DNA of 63,268 nucleotides from Candidatus Pacearchaeota archaeon (GCA_050302495.1 JBNLBP010000001.1:1-63268); one strand, 5' to 3'. Numbered from the stretch's first letter, positions 3,473 to 63,268 are shown. A program made the numbers and translations. The notes: generated by a model from the letters alone, not told the origin.

Positions 3473-3692
3473 ACACCTATAAAAAAGGCAAATAGATGGA
3501 ATGGACCGAAAATAGGGAGAACAAGCTTTTTAAAGGAAAATTCACTCTCCATAATACACCTTAAAGGTGAATAGGGATTAACCTAATGTGTGTTGACAAA
3601 TAGTTCCCTATGCTATGTTAAGACACAGAGGTTGTCATAGACAACAGATACGGACTGGTAACAGTTTAGGAGAGATGAAAGGAGGTCAAAAA

Positions 3693-6783: not shown

Positions 6784-6784
6784 C

Positions 6785-8050: not shown

Positions 8051-8494
8051 TTATAGCTTTATTTCAAGATCTTTGTAATACTCTTCTGGAGACAAAGCCT
8101 CATTGCCATTAATCCCATCCATTTCTGGATCGAATAACAACAATAAATCATCTTTTGGAGGGTCTTGTTTTCCATATTTGTTGAAGATATAAATTATCGG
8201 GAATTGTGATCGAGTTACGCTATCACCTCTTATCTTGAGGGGTGTAAATTCAACAACATCAAATATTGAATCCTTCGGGGAATCTAGGTCATAATAATCC
8301 ACCCTCATAAGATTGCTACCGCTGTTACCAAAATAGTAACCGCTAGAATAATCTGGAACAGGGTTTCTTTTCTGATAACCCTTAAACTTTCCAGGGAGAA
8401 AATCCTGTGAATTAGAATTTGAAGAAAGGGCAAAAAAGGCTAAAGGCAAAATTAATTTAGATAGGCTTTTCATAATAGAATTACTTTCTTGCAA
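8051..8494 (-). CDS. secreted hypothetical protein
   Basis: Signal peptide MKSLSKLILPLAFFALSSNSNS; 14-nt overlap with upstream adhesin gene (operon). Confidence 0.5.
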   Translation of the reverse strand: MQESNSIMKSLSKLILPLAFFALSSNSNSQDFLPGKFKGYQKRNPVPDYSSGYYFGNSGSNLMRVDYYDLDSPKDSIFDVVEFTPLKIRGDSVTRSQFPIIYIFNKYGKQDPPKDDLLLLFDPEMDGINGNEALSPEEYYKDLEIKL

Positions 8495-12302: not shown

Positions 12303-12311
12303 TTTATTAAA

Positions 12312-12385
12312 TGGGGATACGCGGATTTGAACCGCGGTCATGAAGTCCCAAACCTCATAGGCTAACCAGGCTACCCCATATCCCC
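12312..12385 (-). tRNA. tRNA-Pro (anticodon UGG)
   Basis: 74-nt cloverleaf read on minus strand: acceptor GGGGATA/TATCCCC, anticodon stem TGAGG/CTTCA with loop TTTGGGA, T-arm CGCGG-TTCAAAT-CCGCG; no encoded CCA. Confidence 0.8.
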
Positions 12386-12406
12386 ATATGTTTTGGAGAT
12401 TATGGA

Positions 12407-27628: not shown

Positions 27629-28370
27629 AAGAGAATATTATTAGAGCTATGAATAACACTAAATATAATATGCTGAATATTACCATTAATCCAAACAACA
27701 CAGGATGATTCTTTGTTATGATGTCTCCAAAATAAGTTTGTATAAATATCATTGGTATTAACCCGAGCATTGTTGCTAAAAGAAATTTGTAAGTCTTAAT
27801 CTTTGTAAACCCAGATAAGTAACTTACCAGATCAGAAGTTGTAAGAGGATTTATCCTTAATATAAAGATTGATAGTGCTCCGTATTTATCAAAGAATTTG
27901 TTAAATTTCTTTTGCATTCTTTTATCCATTCTATTTTGAATAAAATTTCCATCAAAATTTCTTGCAATCTTAAAATCTATAAAAGCCCCAATAAGATTTC
28001 CCCCAAATACTAGGATCCCCCCATAAAACCCTCCAAACAATGCCCCTGCTACAATATAGAGTATTAGAGGAGGCATAGGTGCTAAAACTACTTCAAGAAT
28101 AACTAGTAAAACAAATATTATTTCTGTAAAACCTTCAAAAGACTTCAAGAATAAAAGTAGATTTTCAACATCTCCTTTTATTAAAATATAAATTAAGCTT
28201 TTATTAATATAAGAATAAACCATCCATGCAATTAGTATTAAAAACATGGTTAAGATTAACCAATGCTTTTGAAAGAAATTTTTACCTCTTTTCATAAATG
28301 CTTTAGGAAAATATTCTATATAAGTCTTAAGGAATAAACGCCCCCGCCAGGAGTCGAACCTGGTTGCCAA
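27615..28370 (-). CDS. DedA / SNARE-associated (TVP38/TMEM64) family membrane protein
   Basis: VLAPMPPLILYIVAGALFGGFYGGILVFGGNLIGAFIDFKIARNFG matches the DedA core; 251 aa, multiple TMs. Confidence 0.7.
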   Translation of the reverse strand: MATRFDSWRGRLFLKTYIEYFPKAFMKRGKNFFQKHWLILTMFLILIAWMVYSYINKSLIYILIKGDVENLLLFLKSFEGFTEIIFVLLVILEVVLAPMPPLILYIVAGALFGGFYGGILVFGGNLIGAFIDFKIARNFDGNFIQNRMDKRMQKKFNKFFDKYGALSIFILRINPLTTSDLVSYLSGFTKIKTYKFLLATMLGLIPMIFIQTYFGDIITKNHPVLFGLMVIFSILYLVLFIALIIFSSKKN

Positions 28371-28417
28371 AAGGCCCAGTTCTCAAGACTGGTGCACGAC
28401 CGTTATGCGTCGGAGGC
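28339..28417 (-). tRNA. tRNA-Ser (anticodon UGA), long variable arm
   Basis: Minus-strand cloverleaf: acceptor GCCTCCG/CGGGGGC, anticodon stem CCAGT/ACTGG with loop CTTGAGA, 12-nt variable arm GCCTTTTGGCAA, T-arm CCAGG-TTCGACT-CCTGG; no encoded CCA. Confidence 0.75.
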
Positions 28418-28453
28418 GTAATTATAAAATTAAAGAGTAGATTAAAAAGATTT

Positions 28454-49796: not shown

Positions 49797-50783
49797 ATGG
49801 AACCCTTAATTGCAATAACAATTTTTGCGAGTTTTTTTTGCTCATTTTTGATAACACCCCTTTGGATAAGGAAAGCCAAGTCTTTAGGGTTAACAGGTAA
49901 AGATATTCACAAGAAAAAATCTGAAGAGGTAGCAGAAGGGGGAGGAGTAGGTATCTTGTTTGGATTTACAATAGGCGTTTTACTTTATGTTGCAATAAAT
50001 ACGTTCTACTTTAACAATACTACCAAACTTACAGAAATATTTGCTTTACTTTGTGTTATATTCATAGGGTCAATTGTAGGAATAGTTGATGATTTGACTG
50101 GATGGAAAAAGGGGTTGAGTAGGAAGATAAGAATTGCGATAGTTGTATTTGCTGCAATTCCTTTAATGGTTATAAACGCGGGGGAATCTTCTATACTTGG
50201 AATAAATCTGGGCATATTCTTCCCATTGATAGTTATACCTCTTGGGATTGTTGGGGCGACAACAGTTTACAACACTCTAGCTGGATACAATGGTCTTGAA
50301 ACTTCGCAAGGTATGCTTTTACTTGGAGCTTTGGCTTATATTACATACATTACGGGAAACCCTTGGTTAAGTGTTGTTGCATTGTGTATGGTTGCTGCTC
50401 TTCTTGCATTCTACTTTTTCAATATGAATCCTGCTAAAATCTTCCCAGGAGATATTACAACATACTCAATTGGGGCTCTATTTGGGGGGATTGCTATAAT
50501 TGGAAATGTAGAAAAAATAGCTTTGTTCTTTTTCATACCCTATATATTTGAGATCATATTAAAGATCAGAGGTAAATTGGAAAAGGAGAGTTTTGGTAAA
50601 TTAAACCAAGATGGAGAAAGTCTTGATTTGAGGTATAATAAGATATATGGTCTTGAACATCTTGCTATAAAAATATTAAAGAAAGTCAAGAAATCTGGAA
50701 AAGCATACGAAAACGAAGTGGTCTGGTTGATAAATGGTTTCCAATTATTAATAATTATTCTTGGACTTTTGATATTCTTTTAA
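49797..50783 (+). CDS. aglH: UDP-GlcNAc:dolichyl-phosphate GlcNAc-1-phosphate transferase (AglH/GPT, MraY-WecA family)
   Basis: 328 aa polytopic; VGIVDDL (DDxxD) and NGLE motifs of polyprenyl-phosphate sugar-1-P transferases. Confidence 0.75.
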   Translation: MEPLIAITIFASFFCSFLITPLWIRKAKSLGLTGKDIHKKKSEEVAEGGGVGILFGFTIGVLLYVAINTFYFNNTTKLTEIFALLCVIFIGSIVGIVDDLTGWKKGLSRKIRIAIVVFAAIPLMVINAGESSILGINLGIFFPLIVIPLGIVGATTVYNTLAGYNGLETSQGMLLLGALAYITYITGNPWLSVVALCMVAALLAFYFFNMNPAKIFPGDITTYSIGALFGGIAIIGNVEKIALFFFIPYIFEIILKIRGKLEKESFGKLNQDGESLDLRYNKIYGLEHLAIKILKKVKKSGKAYENEVVWLINGFQLLIIILGLLIFF

Positions 50784-50820: not shown

Positions 50821-53562
50821 ATGAGTGATAAAGAATTTTCCCTAAATGTTAAGGAAATTAAGAGTAGTTACAAAAAATCTAAGCATTTCTTTATGGACAA
50901 AAGAGTACAATTAATCCTTACTGCAGTTATTTTTCTTATTATACTAATATCTGCTTCTGTAATAAGAACCTCCAATTTGGACAATCTTAAAGACATGACT
51001 ACCGGAAACTATTCTGCAGCAGATCCAGATGCTCTTTATTTCCTAAGGCTGTCCCACGTTGTTCTTGACCAAGGAAATTTAAATGGTGTTGATGCTTTAA
51101 GGGCTCCAGGTTTAAACATACCTTATCTTAAGGAGATTGCCCCTTACACAATTGTTGGAATTTACAAAATAGCTAGTGTGTTTAGCCAGGGGGCAGATCT
51201 TAACTTCATTGCGGTAATTTCGCCAGTAATATTCTTCATTTTGGGACTAATTGTCTTTTTCTTTCTCTGTTATTATTTAACAAAATCAAAACTTGTTGCT
51301 TTACTTTCTTCCGCATTTTTAGCATTTTCACCTGCATATTTGTTTAGAACTATGTCTGGAGTTTTAGATCACGATTCTATAGGTATGTTGGGAATATTTG
51401 CGACACTACTCGTTTTTGCTGTAGGCTCTAAGAGATATAATAAATCAAAAAATAAAACTTTGTTGTGGGGAGGAATTTTGGGCCTATCAACAGCATTCGC
51501 ATTGGGAGCATGGGCAGGAGGGGTTACATTCTTGTTTATGATTATACCTCTTGCAATAATTGTTAATTACTTGTTTAACCTTGAAGGGAAAAAGGAGGAA
51601 AAAGAGAAACTAATTTTATTCAATATAACTTGGCTTGTTTCATATGTAATCTTCACTAGAATCATTGGATTTGCTATGTCTGATATACTTAATCGGTTGA
51701 CAAATCCTTCAAGTATGTTGGTATTACTCGTCTTAGGTTTTATCGTGGTGGATTATCTTGTTGAAAGAAACATGAAGAAGTTGAAAATGATTAAAGAAGA
51801 AAATAGGGTTGCTTATTCTATTGTTGCAGCAATAATTTTGGGAATCTTATTATTGACTTTGACGGGAAACAATTTCTTCTCTATGGTCTCTCAAATATAT
51901 TATAAAATCTTGAATCCTTTCGGTTACGGAGGAAGATTAGGTTCCACCGTTTCAGAAAATGCCCAACCGTATCTAACCTCTTGGATAAGCCAAATAGGAA
52001 AGGGTCTGTTCGCTTTATTCTTTGCAGGAATGGTTCTTATGGGGTTTGATTTTTCTAAGAAGATCGGCTCTAAAAAACACCGTATTTATTTTGTTGCGTT
52101 TTGGATAATCCTTATATCAGGGATATTATTTAGTAGAATCTCTCAAGGCCATATACTAAACGGAGAAAATTTCATAAGTCAAATATTTTACATTGGAGGA
52201 TTTTTATTATTCCTTATTTATTTCGTAAGACTATATTTCAAAAACAGATTTGAGATAGACAAAGACATGATCTTGGTTTTCTCTTGGATGTTATTCATGT
52301 TAGTTCTTAGTAGGGCTGCTGCAAGAACAATATTTGTTGCAACACCCTTTGCATGTTTCGCTGCAAGCTATTTGCTTGTTGGGTTGGGAAAGAGATTGAG
52401 AAAACCTAGAGAAGATACGATGAAAATGATTCTTTGGTTAATTTTCATAATAGGAGTTATACTTGCATTCGTTTCTTTATTTGGAAACCCTTTAACTCAG
52501 TCTCCAGGTACGTATCAAATACTTAAGAATCAGGCGTCAGGCATCGGTCAAGCAGCAAATTATCAATGGCAATACGCAATGGAGTGGGCAAGAGATAATA
52601 CTGGAGAAGGAGATATTTTTGTACACTGGTGGGATTATGGGTATCTCGTCCAAACCCTAGCAAATAGAAAGACCGTTAGTGATGGAGGTCATGCTGCAGG
52701 AGATTCAGGAGACCATAATGTAGGGAGATACATCTTAACAACCCCTAACCCTATTACTGCCTTGAGCTATATGAAGACTTGGAATGTTTCCTATTTGATA
52801 ATTGATCCAACAGATCTTGGAAAATATGGAGCATATTCAAAGATTGGAAGTGATAAGGATTATGATAGATACTCAGCTCCATTTGCTTTAGCAAAAGAAG
52901 ATAGTCAAACTGTTGAAACTTCTTCAGGAAACAAATTTGTTTACCAAGGAAGTAGTTTTGTTGACGGAGATATCAGCTATCAAGATATATTCATCCCTGG
53001 ACCAAGCTTTACAGAATCAGGACAAGCAACTGCGAACGCATACATTATAGGATTACTTTTAGAAACCTCCGATGTGTCGGAAGGAAGAACCGAGATAAAA
53101 CAACCCCAAGCAGTATTCTACTATAAAGATAAACAATATCAAATTCCCATAAGATATGTGTATTATCAAGGAAGGATTATGGATTTCCAATCAGGTATAG
53201 AATCAACATTCGTTTTGATTCCTAAAGTAAATGAAGACTCTTTAGGGTCAATAGGCATTGATTATACAGGGGCAGGAATGTATTTATCAGAAAAAGTCTC
53301 CGATAGTCTATTTGCAAACCTTTATTTGATGGATGATCCATTCAATAAATACCCTACAATCACTCTTGCAAATTCTGAAGATGATTACGTTGTTAATGCT
53401 TTGAAACAACAGGGTGCAGAGGTTGGGGACTTTGTATATTATGGTGGTTTCAGAGGTCCTTTAAAAATTTGGAAAGTAGAATACCCTCAAGGAACTGAAA
53501 CACATGATGAATTCTTGCAGTTGACTTCTAATTGGGAAGGAGAATTAGATAAATTATTTTGA
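50821..53562 (+). CDS. aglB: archaeal oligosaccharyltransferase AglB (STT3 family)
   Basis: 913 aa; 13-TM N-terminal domain, WWDYGY motif (IFVHWWDYGYLV), large C-terminal soluble domain. Confidence 0.9.
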   Translation: MSDKEFSLNVKEIKSSYKKSKHFFMDKRVQLILTAVIFLIILISASVIRTSNLDNLKDMTTGNYSAADPDALYFLRLSHVVLDQGNLNGVDALRAPGLNIPYLKEIAPYTIVGIYKIASVFSQGADLNFIAVISPVIFFILGLIVFFFLCYYLTKSKLVALLSSAFLAFSPAYLFRTMSGVLDHDSIGMLGIFATLLVFAVGSKRYNKSKNKTLLWGGILGLSTAFALGAWAGGVTFLFMIIPLAIIVNYLFNLEGKKEEKEKLILFNITWLVSYVIFTRIIGFAMSDILNRLTNPSSMLVLLVLGFIVVDYLVERNMKKLKMIKEENRVAYSIVAAIILGILLLTLTGNNFFSMVSQIYYKILNPFGYGGRLGSTVSENAQPYLTSWISQIGKGLFALFFAGMVLMGFDFSKKIGSKKHRIYFVAFWIILISGILFSRISQGHILNGENFISQIFYIGGFLLFLIYFVRLYFKNRFEIDKDMILVFSWMLFMLVLSRAAARTIFVATPFACFAASYLLVGLGKRLRKPREDTMKMILWLIFIIGVILAFVSLFGNPLTQSPGTYQILKNQASGIGQAANYQWQYAMEWARDNTGEGDIFVHWWDYGYLVQTLANRKTVSDGGHAAGDSGDHNVGRYILTTPNPITALSYMKTWNVSYLIIDPTDLGKYGAYSKIGSDKDYDRYSAPFALAKEDSQTVETSSGNKFVYQGSSFVDGDISYQDIFIPGPSFTESGQATANAYIIGLLLETSDVSEGRTEIKQPQAVFYYKDKQYQIPIRYVYYQGRIMDFQSGIESTFVLIPKVNEDSLGSIGIDYTGAGMYLSEKVSDSLFANLYLMDDPFNKYPTITLANSEDDYVVNALKQQGAEVGDFVYYGGFRGPLKIWKVEYPQGTETHDEFLQLTSNWEGELDKLF

Positions 53563-54368
53563 GAACAATGGATGGCAAAATTAAGAATAGCTTGAAAGAG
53601 AACTATGTCAAAAGAATAGCTAATAGAGTGATGAACACGCTTTATATCTACCCTTTCTTCAAACTAAAGGGTCCTTTGAAAGGCCATACGGCAAAAATAA
53701 TTAATTTGCATTACATAGAGAGGGCTCCAGAAACTCAAGTTGCGGAAATAATTGAGAGTAAAGTAAACCTCGGAGACAAGGTAATTGATGTGGGAACACA
53801 TTTTGGATACTATACCTTACTCATGGCAAAGAAGGTTGGATCGGAAGGAAAAGTCATATGTTTTGAGCCTTCTAAAGAGACAAGAAATATTCTTAGGAAC
53901 AATATTAAGAAAAATAAATACCAAGATAGAACAATAATTGAGAGCAAAGGCGTTTCCAATGAAAGAAAAACTCTCCCATTTAGCGTTAGGAAATTTAGTC
54001 CAATGAATACTTTTACGATTGAGGAATATGGAAATGTCAAAAAAATTGAATGTATTGATTTAGACACTTATTGTAAAGAGAAGGATATTACCCCTTCTTT
54101 CCTAAAGATTGATGTAGAGGGTGTGGAAAAAGAAGTTATTGAAGGTATGAAGAAGCTAATAAGAATAAGTAAACCAAAGGTTCTCCTTGAAGCTTCAAAA
54201 GAAACAGAAGGTATGGAAGAAATATTTGATATGTTTATTAAAAATGGATACAAAGTTTACACTTGGAGAACAAGGGTTGATGAGGACTCTTGGAAAGATC
54301 TGGTTGAAATAAAAAGGCCAGGAGAAGTGATTACAAAACACATCTACTTCGAGTATCCTCTTTTCTAG
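53559..54368 (+). CDS. FkbM-family methyltransferase
   Basis: VIDVGTHFGYYT (SAM-binding) and FLKIDVEGVE motifs; 4-nt overlap with aglB; TAG stop. Confidence 0.7.
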   Translation: MRTMDGKIKNSLKENYVKRIANRVMNTLYIYPFFKLKGPLKGHTAKIINLHYIERAPETQVAEIIESKVNLGDKVIDVGTHFGYYTLLMAKKVGSEGKVICFEPSKETRNILRNNIKKNKYQDRTIIESKGVSNERKTLPFSVRKFSPMNTFTIEEYGNVKKIECIDLDTYCKEKDITPSFLKIDVEGVEKEVIEGMKKLIRISKPKVLLEASKETEGMEEIFDMFIKNGYKVYTWRTRVDEDSWKDLVEIKRPGEVITKHIYFEYPLF

Positions 54369-55471
54369 TTTATCGCTTTAGAATATATTTCTCTTAGAAT
54401 TTCATTTCTTTTTTCTATGGAAAATTTCTCTTTTGATTCTTTTATAGCATTCTTAGACATTTTATTAAGTAGTTTTTTATTCTTTATTAGCAATGAAGTT
54501 TTCTCAACAAGATTACTTATGAACGTTTCATCCATTTCAGCATACCCTTTCCAATTTTTAGGAAGATCTATTAGAAAACCTGTTTTCCCTTCAGAAACCA
54601 ATTCTGATTTTGCAAAACTATTTGTTGTTATTACAGGTAATCCGTACGCCAATGCTTCTGGAACTGCAAAACCATAAGAATCTCCAAACCCGGGGTAAAA
54701 GAATATATCTGAAGAAGGATAAATTTCTTTGAATAACTTCTCTTGAGGAATAAGGTCCATTATTTTTATCTGTTTGTTTTTAGAATACTTATCTTTAAAC
54801 TCCTTTGGAATCGGACAGAGAAATATAAATTCAACATTCTTATGATTTTTTGATAAACGATCAAAGACCTCCAAAGTTTGACGGCCCCCTTTTGCATCAA
54901 ACCACCTTGCAACGAATAAAACTCTTGTTTTTTTGTGAGGTATTTTCTTAAAATTAACGGGAGGTGTTGCGAAAGGCACAATAGCCATTTTGTCTAAGAT
55001 CTTTCTATTTCTATGGAATGCTTTTTCAAAAGTTTTTTTGCAATCTTCTGACCAAACCAATATTTTCTTACAATATTTACTCTCTAGCCTATTTCTTATT
55101 ATTGCTTTTCCTAAGCCCTTTGTGGCAGTATTTCTACCTGCAGAAGCTAATTGATCATAAACTTCAGTATCTACCACCCATGGTTTCCTATTTAAGCTTA
55201 AACAGTGAGCACAATGAATTAGATCAAAATTTCTTGAGGTAGTAAAGGTTAAGTTAGGCAAGTGGATCAGCCTCAATAATTTCCTTATTCTATTTTTGAA
55301 AACCCTCATAGATTCGAATTTCCTTCCAGATCCAATAATTTCCATTTTCTTTGAATTCTTTTTGTAGTTAACATAACTAATATTTTTTGGAGGAAAATCA
55401 AGAATGTTTTTGTAGTATGAACTATCTGGAAATTTCCATGGATATTGCAGATGAACCTTGATTTCTTTCAT
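54365..55471 (-). CDS. glycosyltransferase family 4 (GT-B, retaining)
   Basis: C-terminal YPGFGDSYGFAVPEALAYGLPVITT...GKTGFLI matches the GT4 E-x7-E region. Confidence 0.8.
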   Translation of the reverse strand: MKEIKVHLQYPWKFPDSSYYKNILDFPPKNISYVNYKKNSKKMEIIGSGRKFESMRVFKNRIRKLLRLIHLPNLTFTTSRNFDLIHCAHCLSLNRKPWVVDTEVYDQLASAGRNTATKGLGKAIIRNRLESKYCKKILVWSEDCKKTFEKAFHRNRKILDKMAIVPFATPPVNFKKIPHKKTRVLFVARWFDAKGGRQTLEVFDRLSKNHKNVEFIFLCPIPKEFKDKYSKNKQIKIMDLIPQEKLFKEIYPSSDIFFYPGFGDSYGFAVPEALAYGLPVITTNSFAKSELVSEGKTGFLIDLPKNWKGYAEMDETFISNLVEKTSLLIKNKKLLNKMSKNAIKESKEKFSIEKRNEILREIYSKAIN

Positions 55472-55523
55472 ATATATTTTGCATACCAGAAGAGTTTATA
55501 AAATTATAACCTTGATAATAAGT

Positions 55524-56717
55524 ATGGTTAAGGAAGTGGACGCGGTTTACGTTGTTGCATCCAAATTGGGAAGTATTGGAATGGGTTCTGCAGCATATAG
55601 TGCTATAAAAGGTATTGATAAATCAAAAGACATATCTTATAGAATTTTCTGTAGAGGATATAATTCTAAAGTTAAAATAAATAAAAAAAATCTTATTTCT
55701 TATGGATATTTAGAATATCTTTCTTACCCTTTTCGTTTTTTGGAGAAAAAACTTAAGATAAAGATTGATTCATTCAAATGGGTAAACTATCTTTTTGGCA
55801 AAAGAATTTATAAAAATCTGCCAAAGTGTAAGATCTACCATACTTGGATGGGGATATCTCCAGAAGCGATAAAAAAGGCAAAAAAGAACGGAGCAATATT
55901 GATTCTAGAAGCGGCAAATTCCCACCCCCTAAATTTCTTAAATCTTATTAATGAAGAATACAAAACTTTTGATTGCGATAAATTCATTTTAGAAACTGAA
56001 AAATTTAAGAAAGATGTGGAATACATAAAATCATTTGACTATATTTCTTGCCCGTCTGATTTCGTTTATAATTCTTTTTTGGAAGAAGGCTTTGCAAAAG
56101 AAAAACTAATAAAGATTAACTATGGGGTTGATGTGGACAAATTTTCTCCTTCTAGAAGAAAGAAAGATAAGAAATTTCGGGTGTTATTTGTGGGATCAAT
56201 ACAAATGAGAAAAGGAATTCCTTATTTACTAAAAGCGTGGGAAGAATTGAATTTAAAAGATTCTGAACTAGTTGTTGTAGGAAGTGTTTATCCTGAAGCT
56301 GTTCAAATTATTAAGAAATATTTAAAAAACCCTTCAATAAAATTCTGCGGTTTTAACCCTGATTTGAGGGAATACTATTCAAATGCGGATGTTTTTGTAT
56401 TTCCTTCTATTGAAGAGGGTTCTGCTTTAGTTAATTATGAGGCTATGGCTTCAGGTTTACCATTAATCACAACATTTAATTCAGGAAGTGTTGCAAGAGA
56501 CGGAAAGGAGGGATTTATTATACCTATAAGAAATACAGAGAAGTTAAAAGAAAAAATAAAATTTATGCATGACAACCCTAAAAAACGTATTCAAATGGGC
56601 AAAAATGCTAGAAAAAGAATCGAAGAATTTACTTGGGACATATACGGAAAGAAGTTATCAAATCTTTATCGAGATCTCCTGAAGAAATCAAAATATACTT
56701 CTCTTACAATTATTTAA
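55524..56717 (+). CDS. glycosyltransferase family 4
   Basis: Start chosen at MVKEVDAVYVV (the 55458 start overlaps the convergent gene); FPSIEEGSALVNYEAMASGLPLITT...GKEGFII GT4 signature. Confidence 0.8.
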   Translation: MVKEVDAVYVVASKLGSIGMGSAAYSAIKGIDKSKDISYRIFCRGYNSKVKINKKNLISYGYLEYLSYPFRFLEKKLKIKIDSFKWVNYLFGKRIYKNLPKCKIYHTWMGISPEAIKKAKKNGAILILEAANSHPLNFLNLINEEYKTFDCDKFILETEKFKKDVEYIKSFDYISCPSDFVYNSFLEEGFAKEKLIKINYGVDVDKFSPSRRKKDKKFRVLFVGSIQMRKGIPYLLKAWEELNLKDSELVVVGSVYPEAVQIIKKYLKNPSIKFCGFNPDLREYYSNADVFVFPSIEEGSALVNYEAMASGLPLITTFNSGSVARDGKEGFIIPIRNTEKLKEKIKFMHDNPKKRIQMGKNARKRIEEFTWDIYGKKLSNLYRDLLKKSKYTSLTII

Positions 56718-56736: not shown

Positions 56737-57759
56737 ATGTCATTTTTTGAGGTTCTTATGGATTTAACAAATGAATATTTGAATAAAAAAGTATTGATTA
56801 CAGGCGGTGGCGGCTTTATTGGAAGCAACCTTGCAATAAAATTAGTAGAATTAGGCGCAGAAGTTTCGGTAATGGATTCGAAATTAAAGCCTTATGGGTT
56901 TAATTTGTTTAATCTTGATCCAGTGTTGGATAAAATAAATATAGATTATTCGGATATAAGGGATAGAAATGCTGTTGAAAGGAATATTGCTGGACAAGAT
57001 ATAATCTTTAATTTGGCTGCACAGGTAGGTGAAAAAGTAGGAGAGGAAAATCCTTTTTTAGACTGGGACATAAATGTTAGAGGGCACATGGAAGTATTAA
57101 ATGCATGCAAAAACAAAAATAAAGAAGCAAGAATAATATTTCCAGGTTCAAGGTTACAATATGGTAAGACAAATGGGGCAGAGATAATTTCTGAAAGCCA
57201 CCCCATGAACCCCTTAACTAATTATGCCAGAAACAAAGTCGTGGGGGAAGAAATGTACCAAAAACTTAACAAAGAGGGTTTAGAAACGGTAACATTTAGA
57301 ATTGCTAATCCTTTCGGTCCTCGTGCATCAATTAATAATCCTGGTTATTGTATTGTCAATTGGTTTATTGGTAGGGCCTTGGATGGAAAAGATTTACCCA
57401 TTTATGGAGAAGGGTCTCAGGCAAGAGATTATATTTTTATAGAAGATTTAACAGATGCTATGGCAATCGCAGGAGTCCATAAAAATTCTCCAGGAAACAC
57501 TTACAATTTAGGGTCAGGCCAGAAGACTTTATTCAAAGATATGGCTGAGAAAATAGTTGCACTTTCAGAAAATAATTATTCAAAAATAAATTTTGTTGAA
57601 TGGCCAAAAGATGCAAAAGAAAGAGAGACTGGAAATTTTGTCGCAGATATCTCAAAGATAGAAAGAGAATTGGGTTGGAAGCCTAAGTATAGTTTAGAAG
57701 AGGGTCTGAAAAGAACAATTGAATTTTATAGAGAAAATAAGAACAATTATATTGGATAA
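56737..57759 (+). CDS. NAD-dependent epimerase/dehydratase (extended SDR; UDP-sugar 4-epimerase/decarboxylase-like)
   Basis: VLITGGGGFIGSNL Rossmann motif, YARNKVVGE (YxxxK). Confidence 0.75.
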   Translation: MSFFEVLMDLTNEYLNKKVLITGGGGFIGSNLAIKLVELGAEVSVMDSKLKPYGFNLFNLDPVLDKINIDYSDIRDRNAVERNIAGQDIIFNLAAQVGEKVGEENPFLDWDINVRGHMEVLNACKNKNKEARIIFPGSRLQYGKTNGAEIISESHPMNPLTNYARNKVVGEEMYQKLNKEGLETVTFRIANPFGPRASINNPGYCIVNWFIGRALDGKDLPIYGEGSQARDYIFIEDLTDAMAIAGVHKNSPGNTYNLGSGQKTLFKDMAEKIVALSENNYSKINFVEWPKDAKERETGNFVADISKIERELGWKPKYSLEEGLKRTIEFYRENKNNYIG

Positions 57760-57841: not shown

Positions 57842-58426
57842 ATGGAAGATCAAGAAAGTAAAGTTTATTTTTCGATTGGGGAGAGTATAAATGCAAAAAA
57901 ATCTTTTTATAGTCGCCCAAAAGATCTTGTTGATATTTCAAACAAAATTTATGAGTCTTTAAATAAAGGTCAAAAAATACTTGTTTTTGGGAATGGAGGT
58001 AGTGCGGCAGATGCACAACACATTGCAGGAGAGTTAGTTGGAAGGTTTAAGAAAGAACGTAAAGCTTTAGCAGCAATGGCTTTAACCACAGATACATCCG
58101 TAATAACATCATTATCTAATGATTATGATTATTCAAAGGTATTCGAGAGGCAAATTGAAGCATTTGCTAGGGAAGGAGATATTTTATGGGGAATTTCAAC
58201 CTCAGGAAACTCGGAAAACGTTATTAAAGGTCTTGAAAAAGGAAGAGAAATAGGCACTTATAATTTTTCTATGACTGGTAAAGATGGAGGCATAGTAAAG
58301 AAATTAAGTGATTTTAATATAAATATTGATTCTAAAAACACTCCAAGAATTCAGGAAGCACATCAATTGGCGTACCATATTATTTGCGAATTGGTTGAAG
58401 ATAAAATATATCATAATAATCTTTAA
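57842..58426 (+). CDS. gmhA: SIS-domain phosphoheptose isomerase (GmhA-like)
   Basis: 194 aa; ILVFGNGGSAADAQHIAGEL matches GmhA/SIS; GGAGGT 7 nt upstream. Confidence 0.7.
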   Translation: MEDQESKVYFSIGESINAKKSFYSRPKDLVDISNKIYESLNKGQKILVFGNGGSAADAQHIAGELVGRFKKERKALAAMALTTDTSVITSLSNDYDYSKVFERQIEAFAREGDILWGISTSGNSENVIKGLEKGREIGTYNFSMTGKDGGIVKKLSDFNINIDSKNTPRIQEAHQLAYHIICELVEDKIYHNNL

Positions 58427-58452: not shown

Positions 58453-59433
58453 ATGGTAAGAAATCTTATAACAGGCACTACAGGGATGGTGGGTTCTCAT
58501 TTGGCAGAATTTCTTTTGGACAAAGGGGAAGAAGTTTATGGAACACGTCGTTGGCGAAGTAGGATGGATAATTGTAGAGGATTTGAGGACAAAATAAATT
58601 GGGTGAATATGGAATTAATTGACGCCCATTCTGTTAGAAATGCTATTGAAAGTGTAAGACCTGATGTGATCTATCATCTTGCTGCACAAAGCTATGTTGT
58701 TGATTCAAAAGATGAGCCTGTAGCCACAATGGAAATTAACGCCCATGGAACTGCTCATATTCTTGAAACCGTGAAGGAAATGAAGAAAAGAGATGGGTAC
58801 AACCCTGTTATTCATGTTTGTAGTAGTAGTGAAGTTTATGGGCAGGTGAATCCGGACGAAGTTCCAATAAAAGAAACAAACCAATATCGACCGGCCTCTC
58901 CTTATGCGATAGGAAAGCTAGGAGCAGATATGCTTGCTAGGTGGTATTTTGAAGAATATGATCTGAAGACGATACGTACAAGAATGTTTACTCATACAGG
59001 GCCAAGAAGAGGGGATGTTTTTGTAGTTTCAGCTTTTGCCAAACAAATTGCAAAAATTGAGAAAGGATTACAAAAACCAAAATTAAAAGTAGGTAATCTA
59101 GAATCTGTTAGGACTTTTGCAGATGTTAGAGATACTGTGCATGCATACTATCTCTTAACTAAGCATTGTAAGCCTGGAGAAGTCTATAACATAGGAGGAA
59201 ATAGAACAATGAAGATTGGAGAGATGTTGGATATCCTTTTAAGCTACTCTCCAATGAAAGATAAAATAGAAGTTGAAGTGGATCCGAATCTTCTAAGAAA
59301 AACTGATGTAACATATCAAATACCCGACACATCTAAGTTCAAAAAAGAAACCGGATGGGATAGCCCAATTCCTCTTGAGAAGACTTTAGAAGACACCCTA
59401 GACTATTGGAGAGGGGAATTTAAGAATGAGTAA
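58453..59433 (+). CDS. gmd: GDP-mannose 4,6-dehydratase family (NDP-sugar 4,6-dehydratase)
   Basis: LITGTTGMVGSHLAEFLLDKGEEVYG and catalytic ASPYAIGKLGADMLARWY closely follow Gmd motifs (ITG-TGQDGSYLAEFLL, SPYAxAKLY). Confidence 0.8.
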   Translation: MVRNLITGTTGMVGSHLAEFLLDKGEEVYGTRRWRSRMDNCRGFEDKINWVNMELIDAHSVRNAIESVRPDVIYHLAAQSYVVDSKDEPVATMEINAHGTAHILETVKEMKKRDGYNPVIHVCSSSEVYGQVNPDEVPIKETNQYRPASPYAIGKLGADMLARWYFEEYDLKTIRTRMFTHTGPRRGDVFVVSAFAKQIAKIEKGLQKPKLKVGNLESVRTFADVRDTVHAYYLLTKHCKPGEVYNIGGNRTMKIGEMLDILLSYSPMKDKIEVEVDPNLLRKTDVTYQIPDTSKFKKETGWDSPIPLEKTLEDTLDYWRGEFKNE

Positions 59434-60496
59434 AGAAGTAAAAGTAAAATTAAATCATTTTTCTGGGGAATATGAAAATGATGAAGAGTATTATGAGAAA
59501 TATTGGTCAATTAAAGTTTTGTTAGATAATTTTAATGTAAAAATTGTAGATAATGTGAAAGAGGCGGATGTTATATTTGAACAGTGTACAAGAGGAAGTA
59601 ATTATAATTTTTTAAATGAAAAGAATAAAAAAATAGTGCTCTTTTCTTCAGAAGATCTATATAAAAAAAGAGATATTTTTAATTTAATAGAATCCTTTCT
59701 TTATAAGGTAGGATTGGGGGATAAAAAGTGGAAAATTATAGATAAACTAGATAGTATTATTCCTTCAAGTATCTCAAGCATTCCATTGAAATATTTTCTA
59801 CCAAAACATTTGAAGTTTGTGAGAAAAATTTCAGAAGGAAAAATAAAAAATGCATACGCAATTGTTCAAAATGATATAAAAGGGGAAAACATCTTGATAA
59901 TTCCCTGTTTCTTGCATGTTTTTTATTATAATTTGAAAGATTTCACAAAAAAGAAAAAACAGGAATCAAGTAAAAGGAAGAAATTTTGTGCGTTTATTGT
60001 ATCTAGCAATTCCTCTAGGGAAAGGGTTAAATTTTTTAAGAAATTGTCCAAATACAAGAAAATTGATTCTTATGGAAGGGTCATGAATAATATGGGAGAT
60101 AGTATTTTTAATGGCCACTGGAGTGGAACCCACCCGGAGATATATAAAGACTATAAATTCGTGATTTGTTTTGAGAATAGTTTTACAAAAGAGTATATTT
60201 GTGAGAAATTGCCTAGGACTATGCTTTCTGGAGCAATACCTATATTCAGAGGTGCTCCAAACATTGGAGAATATTTCAATAAAAAATCTTTCATTAATTA
60301 TGATAATTATGGAAGTTATGAAAATATGATAAAGAAAATTATTGAGTTGGATAGTGATGATAAAAGATATGAATCATTCCTAAGAGAACCTTGGTTCAAA
60401 GATAACAAGATTCCAAAGATATTTAGAGATAAAGAGAAAGAATTAATTCAATTTTATACCAAGATTTTTGGACCTCCAAAGAGAAAATTAAAATGA
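59426..60496 (+). CDS. glycosyltransferase family 10-like alpha-(1,3)-fucosyltransferase homolog
   Basis: Both FucT signature regions present: KKFCAFIVSSNSSRERVKFFKKL...GRVMNNMG and YKFVICFENSFTKEYICEKL...GAIPIFRG (cf. H. pylori FASFVASN...R..F / YKFSLAFENS..YVTEK..IPIY-G). Confidence 0.7.
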   Translation: MSKEVKVKLNHFSGEYENDEEYYEKYWSIKVLLDNFNVKIVDNVKEADVIFEQCTRGSNYNFLNEKNKKIVLFSSEDLYKKRDIFNLIESFLYKVGLGDKKWKIIDKLDSIIPSSISSIPLKYFLPKHLKFVRKISEGKIKNAYAIVQNDIKGENILIIPCFLHVFYYNLKDFTKKKKQESSKRKKFCAFIVSSNSSRERVKFFKKLSKYKKIDSYGRVMNNMGDSIFNGHWSGTHPEIYKDYKFVICFENSFTKEYICEKLPRTMLSGAIPIFRGAPNIGEYFNKKSFINYDNYGSYENMIKKIIELDSDDKRYESFLREPWFKDNKIPKIFRDKEKELIQFYTKIFGPPKRKLK

Positions 60497-61149
60497 ACAA
60501 TATTTTTTATGGAATACTTTCTGTAGGGTTTGACATCGATCAAACAATGTACGCAAAAAATAGTGAAATAGACTTAATTATTCAAGATGAAATTGCGAGG
60601 AAGATTCTTGAAATAAAACCTTCTTTCAATAATCTTGAATCAGCAAAAGAATTTTCTGAAAGAAGATATTCTGAATTAGGGAGCCGAACAAGTGTGTTAG
60701 AAGAGGTTGGCTATAAAAATGCTCAAGAAATCTTGTACGGATGCATTTCAAGTGATAAAACAATAAACCCTCTCCAGAAAGACGAAAGGCTTCAGGAAAT
60801 GATTTCAAGATTGGGACATAAATATGATCTTTTTTTAATAACTAATAATTCGGAGGATATTGCGACTAAAAAATTAGATCGATTAGGTGTTGACAAGTCT
60901 TTATTTAACCTAAAATTTTATGGAGACACATTACCTGGAATAAAAAAATCTGATGGTTCTTTGTTCAAATATTTCCTAAGTAGGTCCAAACATTCCCCTG
61001 AAAACCACATATATGTCGGAGATAGCCTTAATGCAGACATAATCCCTTCTAAAAAGCTAGGTTTCAAAACAATTTGTGTAGGAAATCACTTTCTTGAAGC
61101 GAATTATTCTGTTAAAGAAATTTATGATATAGAAAATCTTCTTCTATAA
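60493..61149 (+). CDS. HAD-superfamily hydrolase (subfamily IA-like)
   Basis: Motif I VGFDIDQTM, motif IV YVGDSLNADI; 4-nt overlap with upstream gene. Confidence 0.6.
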   Translation: MNNIFYGILSVGFDIDQTMYAKNSEIDLIIQDEIARKILEIKPSFNNLESAKEFSERRYSELGSRTSVLEEVGYKNAQEILYGCISSDKTINPLQKDERLQEMISRLGHKYDLFLITNNSEDIATKKLDRLGVDKSLFNLKFYGDTLPGIKKSDGSLFKYFLSRSKHSPENHIYVGDSLNADIIPSKKLGFKTICVGNHFLEANYSVKEIYDIENLLL

Positions 61150-61208: not shown

Positions 61209-62996
61209 ATGAAGTTAGCAGATTATGTTATTGATTATTTTGGAGATAAGGGAGTGAAGGATATATTTGAGGTCTATGGTGCTGCGAATGGTGATTTGAT
61301 TGATGCTTTTACGAGAACAGATAAAACAAGATATGTTGCTATAATGCACGAACAAGCTGCAGGGTTTGCTACAGAATGTTATTCTAAGATCAGCGGTAAG
61401 CCAGGTGTTGCGATAGCCACAAGTGGCCCTGGAGGCCAGAATTTTGTGACTCCAATTGCAAATTGTTATTATGATTCTGTTCCGGCAATTTTTATAACAG
61501 GTCAGGTAAACTCCAGATTTTTAAGGCCTGATGAAAGTATAAGACAGAGAGGATTCCAAGAAACCCCTATTGCAGAAATTGTTGCTCCCATAACAAAATA
61601 TTCTAAAATGATTACAGACCCAAGCACAATAAAACATGAACTTGAAAAAGCATGGTATATTTCCCAAGAAGGAAGACCAGGCCCAATTCTTCTTGATCTT
61701 CCGATAGATATTCAAAAAGCGGAAGTAGATCCGTCAAAACTATTTGGGTTTAATTCAGAAACTTATAAAACCAATTTTAATATGGAACAGGTTAATAACC
61801 AGATAGACCACTATCTTGAAGACTTGTCCCGTGCTGAAAGACCAGTTATTCTTGTTGGAGGAGGAGTAAGACCTTCAGGAGGAATAGAAAAACTTCTGAG
61901 TTTGGGAGAGAAATTAAAAATTCCGATGTTCCCCACATGGAATTCATTAGATATTGTTACTTCTGATTACAATTACTATGGAGGAAGGGTTGGAACTTAT
62001 GGCGGAAAAGGAAGAAACTTTGGTTTGCAGAACTCCGATTTAGTTTTGGCTTTGGGAAGCAGAATTTCTGGAAGACTTTATGGAAGCCAGACAAAGGCTT
62101 TCTTAAGAGATGCAAAGAAATATGTAGTAGATATTGATAAAGCTAACTTACAACAAATATTCCAAGAAGTTCCCTTTGACGAGAACATTTTTTGTGACGC
62201 GAAAACTTTTATAGAAAGTTTAGATAAAAAGTTGGAAGGTGTTCCTAAGAAAGATTTCTCTTCATGGACAAGTAAAGTTATGGGTTGGAGAAACAAGTAT
62301 GACCCTGTAAAGAAAGAATTTTTTGAGGCTAATGAGAATGCAAACCCCTATGCTTTTTTTAGAACACTTTCTCAAGAAATGAAATCTGGAGATATCCTTG
62401 TGGGAGACTGTGGGGGAAATATTGTTGTTGCTAGTCACGCTTTTGAAACAAAGAAAGGGCAAAGATTCATTACAAATAATGGAAACTCCCCTATGGGATT
62501 TTCATTTTCAGGAGCCATGGGGGCCTACCTTGCTGCAAATGAAGGCCAAAATGTAGTTTGCACGATTGGAGATGGAGGTTTCAATATGAATATCCAAGAA
62601 CTACAAACTTTAAAGAATTATGATCTAAATTTCAAGACATTCATAATTAACAATGGAATTTATGGTATCACTAAAGCATTCCAAGAAAAGAAGTTTGAGG
62701 GTAGGGCTGAAGCATGTGGTCCAAAAGGCTATGTTCCTCCTAATTTTATGGCCATATGTGATGCTTACGGAATTAAAACCGAATCTATAAAAGGAAATGA
62801 TATTGATAGCATGAGAGAGAAAATTGGAGATGTTTTGAATTCAAAAGGTCCTGTTGTGTGTGATGTAAGTTGTCCAGACTGGCATACTTACGAACCAACA
62901 GTTTTTGGATCAGTCCCAATCGAAGAAATGCACCCTCAGTTGCCTGAAGAAGAATTCAGAGAAAATATGATTATAAAACCTTGGAAAAAGAAATAA
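61209..62996 (+). CDS. thiamine-diphosphate-dependent enzyme of the acetolactate-synthase/POX family
   Basis: 595 aa; N-terminal PYR domain (IMHEQAAGFATECYSKISGKPGVAIATSGPGGQN), C-terminal ThDP motif GDGGFNMNIQELQT...NNGIYG. Confidence 0.8.
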   Translation: MKLADYVIDYFGDKGVKDIFEVYGAANGDLIDAFTRTDKTRYVAIMHEQAAGFATECYSKISGKPGVAIATSGPGGQNFVTPIANCYYDSVPAIFITGQVNSRFLRPDESIRQRGFQETPIAEIVAPITKYSKMITDPSTIKHELEKAWYISQEGRPGPILLDLPIDIQKAEVDPSKLFGFNSETYKTNFNMEQVNNQIDHYLEDLSRAERPVILVGGGVRPSGGIEKLLSLGEKLKIPMFPTWNSLDIVTSDYNYYGGRVGTYGGKGRNFGLQNSDLVLALGSRISGRLYGSQTKAFLRDAKKYVVDIDKANLQQIFQEVPFDENIFCDAKTFIESLDKKLEGVPKKDFSSWTSKVMGWRNKYDPVKKEFFEANENANPYAFFRTLSQEMKSGDILVGDCGGNIVVASHAFETKKGQRFITNNGNSPMGFSFSGAMGAYLAANEGQNVVCTIGDGGFNMNIQELQTLKNYDLNFKTFIINNGIYGITKAFQEKKFEGRAEACGPKGYVPPNFMAICDAYGIKTESIKGNDIDSMREKIGDVLNSKGPVVCDVSCPDWHTYEPTVFGSVPIEEMHPQLPEEEFRENMIIKPWKKK

Positions 62997-63268
62997 TTAA
63001 ATTAATATTTTCTCTAATTCGTTTATAAATTTCTTTGAACCTTTACGAACTATTTTTTTATCTAAATAATTTTCTTCGGTATTGAGAACTAAATAGGAAA
63101 CAAAATCAACCCCTGGATATTTGAAGTCAAGGTCTATATCTTCCCAGTACTTTGCTGTTTTATCCCAAACAGATACGTCTGAAGGATCTGAGATAAGTCC
63201 ATCTGAAGGGGGCCTAGATTTCATTCTTTTCTTTGCTTCAGCCTCAGAACAAACACATTCTACAACAA
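62997..63268 (-). CDS. C-terminal part of a hypothetical protein (5' end outside window)
   Basis: Minus-strand frame stays open upstream of Met 63224 to the window edge (...VVECVCSEAEAKKRMKSRPP...). Confidence 0.4.
   Translation of the reverse strand, partial: VVECVCSEAEAKKRMKSRPPSDGLISDPSDVSVWDKTAKYWEDIDLDFKYPGVDFVSYLVLNTEENYLDKKIVRKGSKKFINELEKILI

Follow-up and report, generated by a model that had tools for sequence, protein, structure and literature searches.

The locus analyzed here raises the question of what a relative of the fucose-adding glycosyltransferases of family GT10 does within an archaeal N-glycosylation (agl) cluster, and which sugar it transfers. The window, the whole 63,268-nucleotide stretch analyzed from a Candidatus Pacearchaeota archaeon, carries an intact 356-aa open reading frame with an ATG start on the plus strand at 59,426–60,496, predicted to encode an inverting GT-B glycosyltransferase of the GT10 family. 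In a Pfam search, the 356-aa protein matched PF00852, the GT10 C-terminal domain and the Pfam counterpart of CAZy GT10, at 88.9 bits (E = 4.2e-25; cutoff 23.9) over residues 183–338, and no other family at E ≤ 0.01. The initial annotation had described the protein as a GT10-like homolog on the basis of two signature blocks, and both are present: the first consists of KKFCAFIVSSNSSRERVKFFKKL from residue 185 and GRVMNNMG at 217–224, the second of YKFVICFENSFTKEYICEKL at 243–262 and GAIPIFRG at 269–276. HMMER aligned the donor domain with Helicobacter pylori FucT (HpFucT; PDB 2NZW, E = 1.2e-12) and the protein with human FUT9 (8D0O, E = 6.6e-14), in both cases in the register that had been proposed from the motifs, and the PDB matches found with phmmer also included AtFUT11. 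The presence of the reading frame and of both motif blocks is far above chance.

The N-terminal half behaved differently from the donor domain. Residues 1–180 gave no Pfam match even at E ≤ 10, neither to FucT_N (PF18025), found in HpFucT, nor to Glyco_tran_10_N (PF17039), found in the eukaryotic enzymes. Among the matches listed, PF00852 was found in all 120 homologs and PF18025 was confined to distant bacterial matches (P0108–P0120). As the N-terminal acceptor domain falls outside both known GT10 N-domain families, the acceptor is not inferable by homology; the missing match leaves the GT10 membership unaffected. With a maximum hydropathy of 1.1 and neither a transmembrane segment nor a signal peptide, the enzyme is predicted to be soluble or peripheral and cytoplasmic.

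The predicted fold agreed with the profile and sequence searches. The AlphaFold (AF2) model (pLDDT 92.5, pTM 0.90) retrieved only GT10 structures at ranks 1–18 in a Foldseek search of the PDB, with other GT-B families beginning at E = 6e-5. The top match was HpFucT (2NZW/2NZX/2NZY; E = 3.7e-19, TM 0.61), which aligned over ~390 columns across both domains although the overall identity is only ~18%. FUT9 followed with E = 1.4e-9, and AtFUT11 (9S6A, the plant core α-1,3-fucosyltransferase) and mango FUT13 (7YRO) were also among the top ranks, the archaeal protein sharing family and fold with all three.

Six active-site residues of HpFucT are matched. R200, N251, Y257, E260, and K261 stand in the HMMER alignment in register with Arg195, Asn240, Tyr246, Glu249, and Lys250, the GDP-sugar binding residues of the HpFucT structure; across 40 homologs, R200 and E260 do not vary, conservation of N251 and K261 reaches at least 90%, and Y257 is the majority residue. 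The sixth, E76, is the predicted catalytic base: it lies at the end of strand 69–73 in the AF2 model, is conserved in at least 90% of the 40 homologs, and aligns with HpFucT Glu95, the counterpart of FUT9 Glu137, in a HMMER alignment that is weak in the N-terminal domain (−1.4 bits). FUT9 Glu137, Arg202, Asn246, and Lys256, with their catalytic and diphosphate-contacting roles (PMC12717137), are all kept in the archaeal protein. The residues given in this source are catalytic and diphosphate-contacting ones only, with none named at the C6-methyl of fucose by which an enlarged donor pocket might be recognized. In the mechanism predicted by homology, E76 takes the proton from the acceptor hydroxyl, the charge of the GDP diphosphate leaving group is neutralized by R200 and K261, N251 forms a hydrogen bond to the donor, and Y257 and E260 contact the GDP-sugar; a metal would not be needed, as for HpFucT and FUT9. 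The profile, sequence, fold, and catalytic-residue tests thus agree and argue that the product of 59,426–60,496 is truly related to the GT10 enzymes that add fucose.

The surrounding genes place this protein in an agl cluster, as had been proposed. The GT10 gene lies ~6 kb downstream of a gene for an AglB oligosaccharyltransferase of the STT3 family (50,821–53,562, plus strand, 913 aa; Pfam STT3 and STT3-PglB_core) with WWDYG at residue 603 and ~13 hydrophobic segments. It is preceded by a gene for an AglH/Alg7-like, initiating polyprenyl-phosphate sugar-1-phosphate transferase (49,797–50,783, plus strand; PF00953 Glycos_transf_4, 99.5 bits), which adjoins AglB also in relatives at 46–59% identity. 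The AglB stop is overlapped by the start of an FkbM-family methyltransferase gene (53,559–54,368, plus strand; Pfam Methyltransf_21, 82 bits), after which come two GT4-type glycosyltransferase genes. One is in divergent orientation (54,365–55,471, minus strand; Glycos_transf_1, 67.9 bits) and its protein is 41–75% identical in relatives; the other (55,458–56,717, plus strand; Glycos_transf_1, Pfam 115.7 bits) is 55–67% identical in eight related loci (designated L001, L004, L006, L007, L027, L029, L031, and L032) and across the clade is kept immediately upstream of GT10 or of the SDR genes associated with it. We have high confidence that the protein belongs to GT10 and has a role in the agl cluster.

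In the pathway proposed here, dolichyl phosphate would receive the first sugar from the AglH-like enzyme, the lipid-linked glycan would be lengthened at the cytoplasmic face by GT10 and both GT4-type enzymes, the FkbM methyltransferase may modify it, and AglB would move the finished glycan onto Asn of surface proteins. The layout is that of the characterized Agl pathways of Haloferax, Methanococcus, and Sulfolobus, in which the genes next to aglB encode an initiating phosphosugar transferase, soluble glycosyltransferases, methyltransferases, and sugar-nucleotide enzymes (PMC11407970). Alternatively, the GT10 enzyme might act outside N-glycosylation, on an O-glycan, glycolipid, or polysaccharide or, like POFUT3/4, directly on a protein, its proximity to aglB being a glycosylation-island effect. 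A published FUT phylogeny groups archaeal homologs together with POFUT3/4 (PMC12717137). The window yielded no flippase, and in general archaeal glycosylation genes of separate pathways are often clustered. We consider such a role very improbable, as GT10 remains linked to AglH, AglB, and both GT4 genes from 76% down to ~45% GT10 identity despite rearrangements, and a protein with neither signal peptide nor transmembrane segment is what would be expected if the glycan is assembled in the cytoplasm on a lipid carrier.

The same linkage recurs across a large archaeal clade. The protein falls within a group of more than 55 clusters from MAGs of Woesearchaeota, Pacearchaeota, and Nanoarchaeota (DPANN), and for some of its members NCBI already uses the name "glycosyltransferase family 10"; the neighbor-joining tree was built without bootstrap support and shows grouping only. 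Of 22 distinct archaeal loci, 14 have AglB no more than 10 kb from GT10, and the order AglH-AglB-GT-GT-(SDR)-GT10 is seen again down to 48% GT10 identity. The earlier statement that GT10 enzymes are rare in archaea is thus misleading for the DPANN lineage, where the AglB locus includes the gene as a conserved component. A scan of metagenomes returned mostly short contigs, duplicates, and distant bacterial matches covering only the C terminus, the informative loci being L037 and L042–L045. A recent, isolated transfer of GT10 into this genome was considered and rejected: the locus sits beside a core of ribosomal-protein, SecY, prefoldin, and aIF-2B genes, and the same backbone is found in L034 at 48% GT10 identity.

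The question of the donor turns on the gene just upstream, which at 58,453–59,433 on the plus strand encodes a Gmd-like dehydratase. Its stop and the GT10 start overlap by 8 nt (ATGAGTAA), bearing out the overlap reported initially, and in five relatives (L027, L029, L031, L032, and L037) the dehydratase is 85–91% identical and directly upstream of GT10. Its best PDB match is 7US5, the Campylobacter jejuni GDP-D-glycero-D-manno-heptose 4,6-dehydratase (2e-88, 300 bits, full length, with 49% identity in 319 aligned columns), followed by Rmd (2PK3, 230 bits), whereas true GMDs in the PDB scored 115–145 bits. Identity as a true GDP-mannose dehydratase was rejected, TIGR01472 (gmd) giving 159 bits against a cutoff of 415. 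The PDB and TIGRFAM comparisons together assign the protein to the DmhA/Rmd-like "short GMD" type of GDP-sugar 4,6-dehydratases, with GDP-heptose as the predicted preferred substrate (DmhA/DdahA type), and not to the GMDs. DmhA-type dehydratases accept GDP-mannose too in vitro.

Some of the neighboring genes are candidates for a heptose pathway. Adjoining the dehydratase gene, at 57,842–58,426 on the plus strand, is a predicted GmhA-type sedoheptulose-7-phosphate isomerase, the enzyme with which heptose synthesis begins (TIGR00441 gmhA at 201.3 bits, just under the cutoff of 209.45; Pfam SIS_2 at 91 bits), which is not found at the same position in close relatives. Upstream of it, an extended SDR epimerase/dehydratase/reductase of 340 aa (56,737–57,759, plus strand; Pfam Epimerase, 151 bits) matched UDP-Glc 4-epimerase-like, UXS, and RmlB enzymes in the PDB at ~110 bits and has counterparts of 61–73% identity in L027, L029, and L031; at 49.7 bits, it is not Fcl-like. 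The GT10 stop is overlapped (ATGA) by the start of a gene for a HAD-IA phosphatase of 218 aa (60,493–61,149, plus strand; Pfam HAD_2 and Hydrolase). The HAD-IA protein is 54–57% identical in the five relatives named above, which have no GmhB-type HAD, while L034 and L004 have a GmhB-type HAD in its place; it may be a replacement for the heptose-1,7-bisphosphate phosphatase GmhB.

Within the 63-kb window, we found no true Gmd, Fcl, ManC, or PMM, and no HddA, HddC, or C4 reductase, the window stopping 270 bp past the next gene, that of a thiamine-diphosphate enzyme (see below). Candidate genes for these later steps are present in relatives, and for the genome analyzed here they are predicted from the syntenic L027. 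L027, L029, L031, and L036 encode a fusion of an NTP-transferase and a GHMP kinase, the best matches of which are HddC (195 bits, equivalog cutoff 300) and HddA (223 bits, cutoff 600), both scores thus lying below their cutoffs; in the PDB, it matched best heptose-7-P kinase 4N3O and HddC 5XHW. In L036, the fusion occurs together with a DmhA-like gene, and GT10 is followed at 1 kb by a strong homolog of Fcl; in L034 and L004 a TAL-GmhA-HddA-GmhB-HddC operon of separate genes lies 5 kb from GT10. Fcl-like genes were also found in L027 (142 and 148 bits) and L001, and relatives carry an RfbH/ColD-like PLP enzyme among the pathway genes.

Whether the donor was GDP-fucose or another GDP-6-deoxyhexose or -heptose had been left open initially. 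Of the two branches, the heptose one is favored by the dehydratase scores (300 vs. ~145 bits) and the adjacent GmhA-type gene. The heptose-type dehydratase, the neighboring GmhA-type gene, and the HddC-HddA-like and Fcl-like genes of the relatives point to GDP-6-deoxyheptose as the likely donor, and we have about even confidence that the donor is of the heptose type. The sugar would come, GDP-activated, from the co-transcribed genes by a route from sedoheptulose-7-P through GmhA, activation of the HddA/HddC type, the DmhA-like 4,6-dehydratase, and Fcl-like reductases, giving a 6-deoxyheptose that would be either the seven-carbon analogue of L-fucose or a form modified further, such as the 3,6-dideoxy sugar. 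The corresponding enzyme chemistry for GDP-6-deoxy- and 3,6-dideoxy-heptose is established for the C. jejuni capsule (PMC10440746, PMC10680097), where the pathway consists of the 4,6-dehydratase (7US5), a PLP C3-dehydratase, epimerases, and Fcl-like C4-reductases. The archaeal loci resemble it in the GT10-overlapping dehydratase and in the HddA/HddC-like, RfbH/ColD-like, and Fcl-like genes that relatives add; they differ from it in the fusion of HddC and HddA, in the HAD-IA protein that may stand for GmhB, and in serving an archaeal N-glycan in place of a bacterial capsule. A heptose is also a component of the Thermoplasma N-glycan (PMC11407970).

The initial annotation called the protein an α-1,3-fucosyltransferase homolog, for which that activity and linkage would be putative. 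A classical L-fucosyltransferase would receive GDP-L-fucose from the DmhA-like enzyme, or a Gmd encoded elsewhere, and an Fcl-like reductase, and would attach α-L-fucose to the N-glycan on its lipid carrier. The heptose genes would then belong with a different transferase, and either of the two GT4 enzymes could be the one that uses their product. The donor-binding residues are all canonical, with no sequence sign of an altered donor, and to our knowledge every characterized GT10 enzyme is a fucosyltransferase using GDP-L-fucose. In addition to the Fcl-like genes of L027 and L001, some members of the clade have hexose-type genes beside GT10: in L044 a Gmd that scores close to the threshold (408 bits, cutoff 415), in L013 a gene resembling Gmd, and in L043 one resembling Fcl (413 bits). 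In the bacterial relatives L016 and L014, GT10 adjoins both Gmd and Fcl. We nevertheless regard this as a rather unlikely account of the present locus, given the heptose-type dehydratase overlapping GT10, the GmhA-type gene inserted right beside it, the lack of true Gmd, Fcl, ManC, and PMM in the window, and the HddC-HddA-like rather than mannose-specific enzymes of the closest relatives. The Gmd and Fcl homologs beside GT10 in L044, L013, and L043 suggest that the ancestral donor of the clade may have been fucose.

A donor foreign to the neighboring pathway, such as GDP-mannose, GDP-D-rhamnose, or unmodified GDP-heptose, could also be imagined for an enzyme of this fold. Among the PDB matches of the dehydratase, second place goes to Rmd, the reductase that belongs to GDP-D-rhamnose synthesis; the GT10 protein is novel in sequence over its N-terminal half; and the clusters hold many further tailoring genes. 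This appears improbable, as GT10 stays with GDP-4-keto-6-deoxy-sugar genes in the hexose and heptose versions of the pathway alike, and the overlap between their reading frames speaks for a functional link of GT10 with the dehydratase. Returning to the heptose-type donor, we tentatively propose that a vertically inherited, AglB-linked GT10 clade of Woesearchaeota and Pacearchaeota carries out a "fucosylation-like" step on the lipid-linked precursor of the N-glycan, and that the sublineage of the window may have switched from GDP-L-fucose to GDP-6-deoxy-L-heptose or a 3,6-dideoxy or branched derivative. We consider this full scenario possible, though short of an even chance. In the literature searched, we found nothing relevant on "GT10" together with "heptose," no report of a GT10 heptosyltransferase, and no N-glycan structure from DPANN archaea. 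The review of archaeal N-glycosylation in PMC11407970 does not mention GT10, and the sole fucose it names is the 6-C-sulfo-D-fucose of the Thermoplasma glycan.

Among the characterized GT10 enzymes, the archaeal protein can be compared with two groups. Like HpFucT, it is prokaryotic and predicted to be soluble, with no N-terminal membrane anchor; HpFucT transfers fucose in the Lewis-antigen mimicry of LPS, whereas the archaeal enzyme belongs to an AglB N-glycosylation locus and likely transfers 6-deoxyheptose. The eukaryotic GT10 FUTs likewise decorate N-glycans, but as type-II membrane proteins of the Golgi they modify glycans already transferred to protein, while the archaeal enzyme, predicted to be cytoplasmic, would act on the lipid-linked precursor before AglB.

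DPANN cell surfaces mediate host contact, on which these reduced-genome archaea are thought to depend. The conservation of GT10 beside AglB throughout a major lineage of DPANN archaea predicts N-glycans capped by a sugar of the fucose type or by a 6-deoxyheptose. A deoxyheptose donor would extend the range of donors known for GT10, a gain for chemo-enzymatic glycan synthesis, with the coupled pathway genes coming as a ready set; if the sublineage did switch donors, this would be the first GT10 heptosyltransferase and would place a deoxyheptose-capped N-glycan on DPANN surface proteins. The archaeal clade also adds prokaryotic data on the origin of the eukaryotic GT10 N-glycan fucosyltransferases. 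In relatives, a weakly GnT-I-like GT-A protein is encoded beside GT10, and with the two together, the families of eukaryotic Golgi N-glycan processing could have prokaryotic counterparts in archaeal N-glycan assembly.

The clusters of the relatives are rich in tailoring genes, among them those for TPP, B12-radical SAM, and PLP enzymes and methyltransferases. In the window, a thiamine-diphosphate enzyme of the acetolactate-synthase family is encoded at 61,209–62,996 on the plus strand (Pfam TPP_enzyme N, M, and C; TIGR00118 at 365 bits against a cutoff of 538); it is probably involved in sugar tailoring. Over 56–63 kb, a sigma-70 scan, a model unsuited to an archaeon, gave fewer promoter-like matches than shuffles (18 vs. 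28), and terminator-like matches, from a scan equally unsuited and given no weight, were about equal to shuffles. The TPP enzyme is 78% identical in L027, where its position is kept, and the gene that follows it there matches with 56% identity over 89 aa a KTI12/AAA_33-like kinase gene that is truncated at the end of the window and retains its C-terminal part (63,000–63,268, minus strand), the synteny with L027 thus running to the last base of the window.

The open reading frame at 59426–60496 (+), which starts with ATG and encodes 356 residues, lies exactly where the initial annotation had placed a GT10-like alpha-(1,3)-fucosyltransferase, and both motif blocks quoted for it were found, at residues 185–224 and 243–276. 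A Pfam search assigned residues 183–338 to the GT10 catalytic domain (PF00852; 88.9 bits against a gathering cutoff of 23.9, E 4.2e-25) and the protein to no other family. In the PDB, sequence searches matched human FUT9 (E 6.6e-14), H. pylori FucT (E 1.2e-12), Arabidopsis core alpha-1,3-FucT and mango FUT13, the sole non-GT10 match being unrelated and marginal (E 0.005), and the alignments to the GT10 enzymes reproduced the proposed pairing of the motifs with known fucosyltransferases. The domain score and these matches bear out the claimed homology, and we consider it very probable that the protein is a GT10 member with a role in the AglB cluster.

An AlphaFold2 model based on 40 homologs (pLDDT 92.5, pTM 0.90) retrieved GT10 structures at ranks 1–18 of a Foldseek search against the PDB. 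The top match was H. pylori FucT (E 3.7e-19, TM 0.61), aligned over ~390 columns spanning both Rossmann-like domains; non-GT10 families of the GT-B type appeared from E 6e-5 only. According to HMMER alignments, Glu95, the base of H. pylori FucT, corresponds to E76 of the window protein, and Arg195, Asn240, Tyr246, Glu249 and Lys250 to R200, N251, Y257, E260 and K261; FUT9 Glu137, Arg202, Asn246 and Lys256 fall on the same positions as their H. pylori counterparts. The roles given to these residues follow PMC12717137. Across the 40 homologs, R200 and E260 never vary, and conservation reaches at least 90% at E76, N251 and K261. Hydrophobic segments are absent (19-residue hydropathy peaks at 1.1). 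As Pfam assigns the first 180 residues to no family even at E ≤ 10, the GT10 N-domain families included, the acceptor domain has the right fold and a novel sequence.

The description of the surroundings as an archaeal agl cluster was correct, as agl-type genes precede GT10 and the remaining window carries core archaeal genes (ribosomal proteins L1, L3, L4, L10 and L11, FtsZ, SecY, prefoldin and aIF-2B). Upstream lie an AglH/Alg7-like phosphosugar transferase (49797–50783, +), AglB (50821–53562, +; STT3 domains, WWDYG at residue 603, ~13 TM segments), an FkbM methyltransferase whose start overlaps the AglB stop (53559–54368, +), two GT4-type transferases (54365–55471, −; 55458–56717, +), an SDR (56737–57759, +), a putative GmhA (57842–58426, +; TIGR00441 at 201 bits, cutoff 209) and, directly before GT10, the 'Gmd-like' dehydratase (58453–59433, +). 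The GT10 stop overlaps (ATGA) the start of a HAD-IA phosphatase (60493–61149, +), which is followed by an acetolactate-synthase-like ThDP enzyme (61209–62996, +; TIGR00118 at 365 bits, cutoff 538) and the cut-off end of a KTI12-like kinase gene (−). In relatives, methyltransferases of differing families fill the AglB–FkbM region, an arrangement suggesting that the N-glycan contains a methylated sugar.

AglB lies less than 10 kb from GT10 in 14 of the 22 distinct archaeal loci, the window included, and the order AglH–AglB–GT4–GT4–(SDRs)–GT10 is repeated across relatives at 76% down to 48% GT10 identity. The recurring order, together with a SecY–EMC3–prefoldin–aIF2B–SpoIIM backbone common to the window and the more distant relative L034, speaks for vertical inheritance of an N-glycan assembly module and against a recent import. 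The window protein is present in NCBI without a name. Among its 166 homologs in a large protein collection, the first ~57 span 64–99% of the query, a few fragments excepted, and all named ones among them come from MAGs labelled Nanoarchaeota, 'archaeon', Woesearchaeota or Pacearchaeota; two homologs are already called 'glycosyltransferase family 10'. In a neighbour-joining tree without support values, these archaeal sequences form one large clade, outside which the bacterial GT10s branch (Spirochaetota, Gammaproteobacteria, FucT_N-bearing), one Methylophagaceae sequence excepted. A published phylogeny contains six archaeal FUT homologs, grouped with FUT10/11, now called POFUT3/4 (PMC12717137). 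Given the homolog list, the tree and the published homologs, GT10 in this archaeal lineage is uncharacterised, not rare as had been proposed for archaea in general. One Spirochaetota MAG (L015, 8348–12871) carries four GT10 paralogs in tandem (P0099, P0103, P0104 and P0105) on a bacterial chromosome.

The overlap of the dehydratase stop with the GT10 start was confirmed (ATGAGTAA), but the Gmd nature of the enzyme was not: its 159 bits on TIGR01472 (cutoff 415) rule out a Gmd equivalog. By far its best solved relative is 7US5, the C. jejuni GDP-D-glycero-D-manno-heptose 4,6-dehydratase (2e-88, 300 bits, 49% identity over 319 columns), followed by the Rmd reductase 2PK3 at 230 bits, with true GMDs at 115–145 bits. 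In five close relatives (L027, L029, L031, L032 and L037) the dehydratase is 85–91% identical, directly upstream of GT10 and more conserved than GT10 itself. Close relatives also carry, ~7 kb downstream, an NTP-transferase/GHMP-kinase fusion of 680–690 aa; for its two halves the top matches are HddC (195 bits) and HddA (223 bits), and in the PDB 5XHW/6JQ8 and 4N3O. L027 additionally has two Fcl-like SDRs and an RfbH/ColD-like PLP enzyme. More distantly, L034 and L004 show a transaldolase–GmhA–HddA–GmhB–HddC operon 5 kb from GT10, and L036 unites the fusion with a DmhA-like gene (52%) and, 1 kb past GT10, a strong Fcl homolog. Loci with heptose-type genes make up 9 of the 22 archaeal ones; other members of the clade have hexose-type neighbours. 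Since the gene order of the window matches that of L027 to the last base, the missing heptose-pathway steps probably lie just past the window end.

In our estimate, the chances are about even that the GT10 donor is GDP-6-deoxyheptose or a derivative. In the established C. jejuni route, GDP-heptose first undergoes 4,6-dehydration; optional PLP C3-dehydration and epimerisation follow, and Fcl-like C4 reduction comes last (PMC10440746, PMC10680097). From the 4-keto-6-deoxyheptose, an Fcl-type enzyme would make GDP-6-deoxy-beta-L-galacto-heptose, whose sugar, L-fucose with CH2CH2OH replacing CH3, would be a natural GT10 substrate analogue. Classical fucosyl transfer from GDP-L-fucose seems rather unlikely to us and yet stays a live rival, because every donor-contact residue is canonical and our literature search found no GT10 heptosyltransferase on record. 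It is also favoured by a Gmd beside GT10 in L044 (408 bits, cutoff 415), a Gmd-like gene in L013 (44% identical to a verified Gmd), an Fcl-like gene (413 bits) with an RfbH-like enzyme in L043, and Gmd/Fcl-type pairs near GT10 in the gammaproteobacterial L016 and L014, the former directly after GT10 (565 bits, cutoff 415; 486 bits, cutoff 500). Other sugars or other acceptors take the rest of the probability. What holds across loci is that a GDP-4-keto-6-deoxy-sugar pathway, hexose or heptose, accompanies GT10, and this strengthens the case for GT10 using what its neighbouring genes produce. The initial interpretation is supported overall, with archaeal rarity and the dehydratase corrected; for DPANN N-glycans it yields a prediction that can be tested, and the deoxyheptose donor would possibly extend the GT10 donor range.

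Among close relatives, GmhA stands between two SDR genes in the window only, which suggests an insertion; it scores 201 bits on the curated GmhA model versus 88 bits for the SIS protein of the L034 heptose operon (mutual identity 28%). The HAD-IA phosphatase, translationally coupled to the window GT10, occurs in the window and the five close relatives, all without a GmhB-type HAD-IIIA; in L034 and L004 the heptose operon includes a GmhB-type HAD and the HAD-IA of the window type is missing, and L036 has neither within 10 kb. The HAD-IA enzyme may thus stand in, without being orthologous, for the heptose-1,7-bisphosphate phosphatase. As an IS6-family transposase (6211–7086, −) adjoins the near-threshold Gmd gene of L044, there is a hint that mobile elements swap sugar-nucleotide genes around a fixed AglB–GT–GT–GT10 core.

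ThDP enzymes recur in the sugar clusters (window 61209–62996, +; L027 11771–13582; L029 12379–13577; L033 18864–20626; L036 6018–7137): the acetolactate-synthase-like proteins of the window and L027 are 78% identical, L029 and L031 encode a split transketolase and an aldo-keto reductase, and L033 and L036 E1-type pairs. Their recurrence, often with B12-radical SAM enzymes and several methyltransferases close by, points to tailoring towards branched-chain or C-methylated sugars; the role of the ThDP enzymes may be YerE-like. A conserved protein of ~300 aa, absent from the window, directly follows or overlaps the GT10 3' end in the archaeal relatives of greater distance; in L027, L029 and L031 it is encoded further downstream (L034 11026–11934; L004 10971–11837; L035 11038–11871; L036 11031–11906; L044 2290–3165; L027 20289–21056; 43–60% identity across loci). 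It shows an EDD motif and, in Pfam, sub-threshold signals only (GNT-I (GT13) or GT2, 14 bits). A GT-A glycosyltransferase is its probable identity, and its gene may lie beyond the window end.

Elsewhere in the window, no Pfam family matched either of two large ORFs of 821 aa (3615–6080, +) and 319 aa (1017–1976, +) at E ≤ 1e-5, and a protein of 526 aa (8481–10061, −) carries a CARDB domain; all three are possibly surface proteins and hence candidate N-glycosylation targets. ARAGORN predicted a tRNA-Ser(TGA) at 28338–28418 (−), overlapping the 5' end of a VTT-domain ORF (27615–28370) and not reported by Rfam at the gathering threshold; tRNA-Pro (12311–12386) was called by both.
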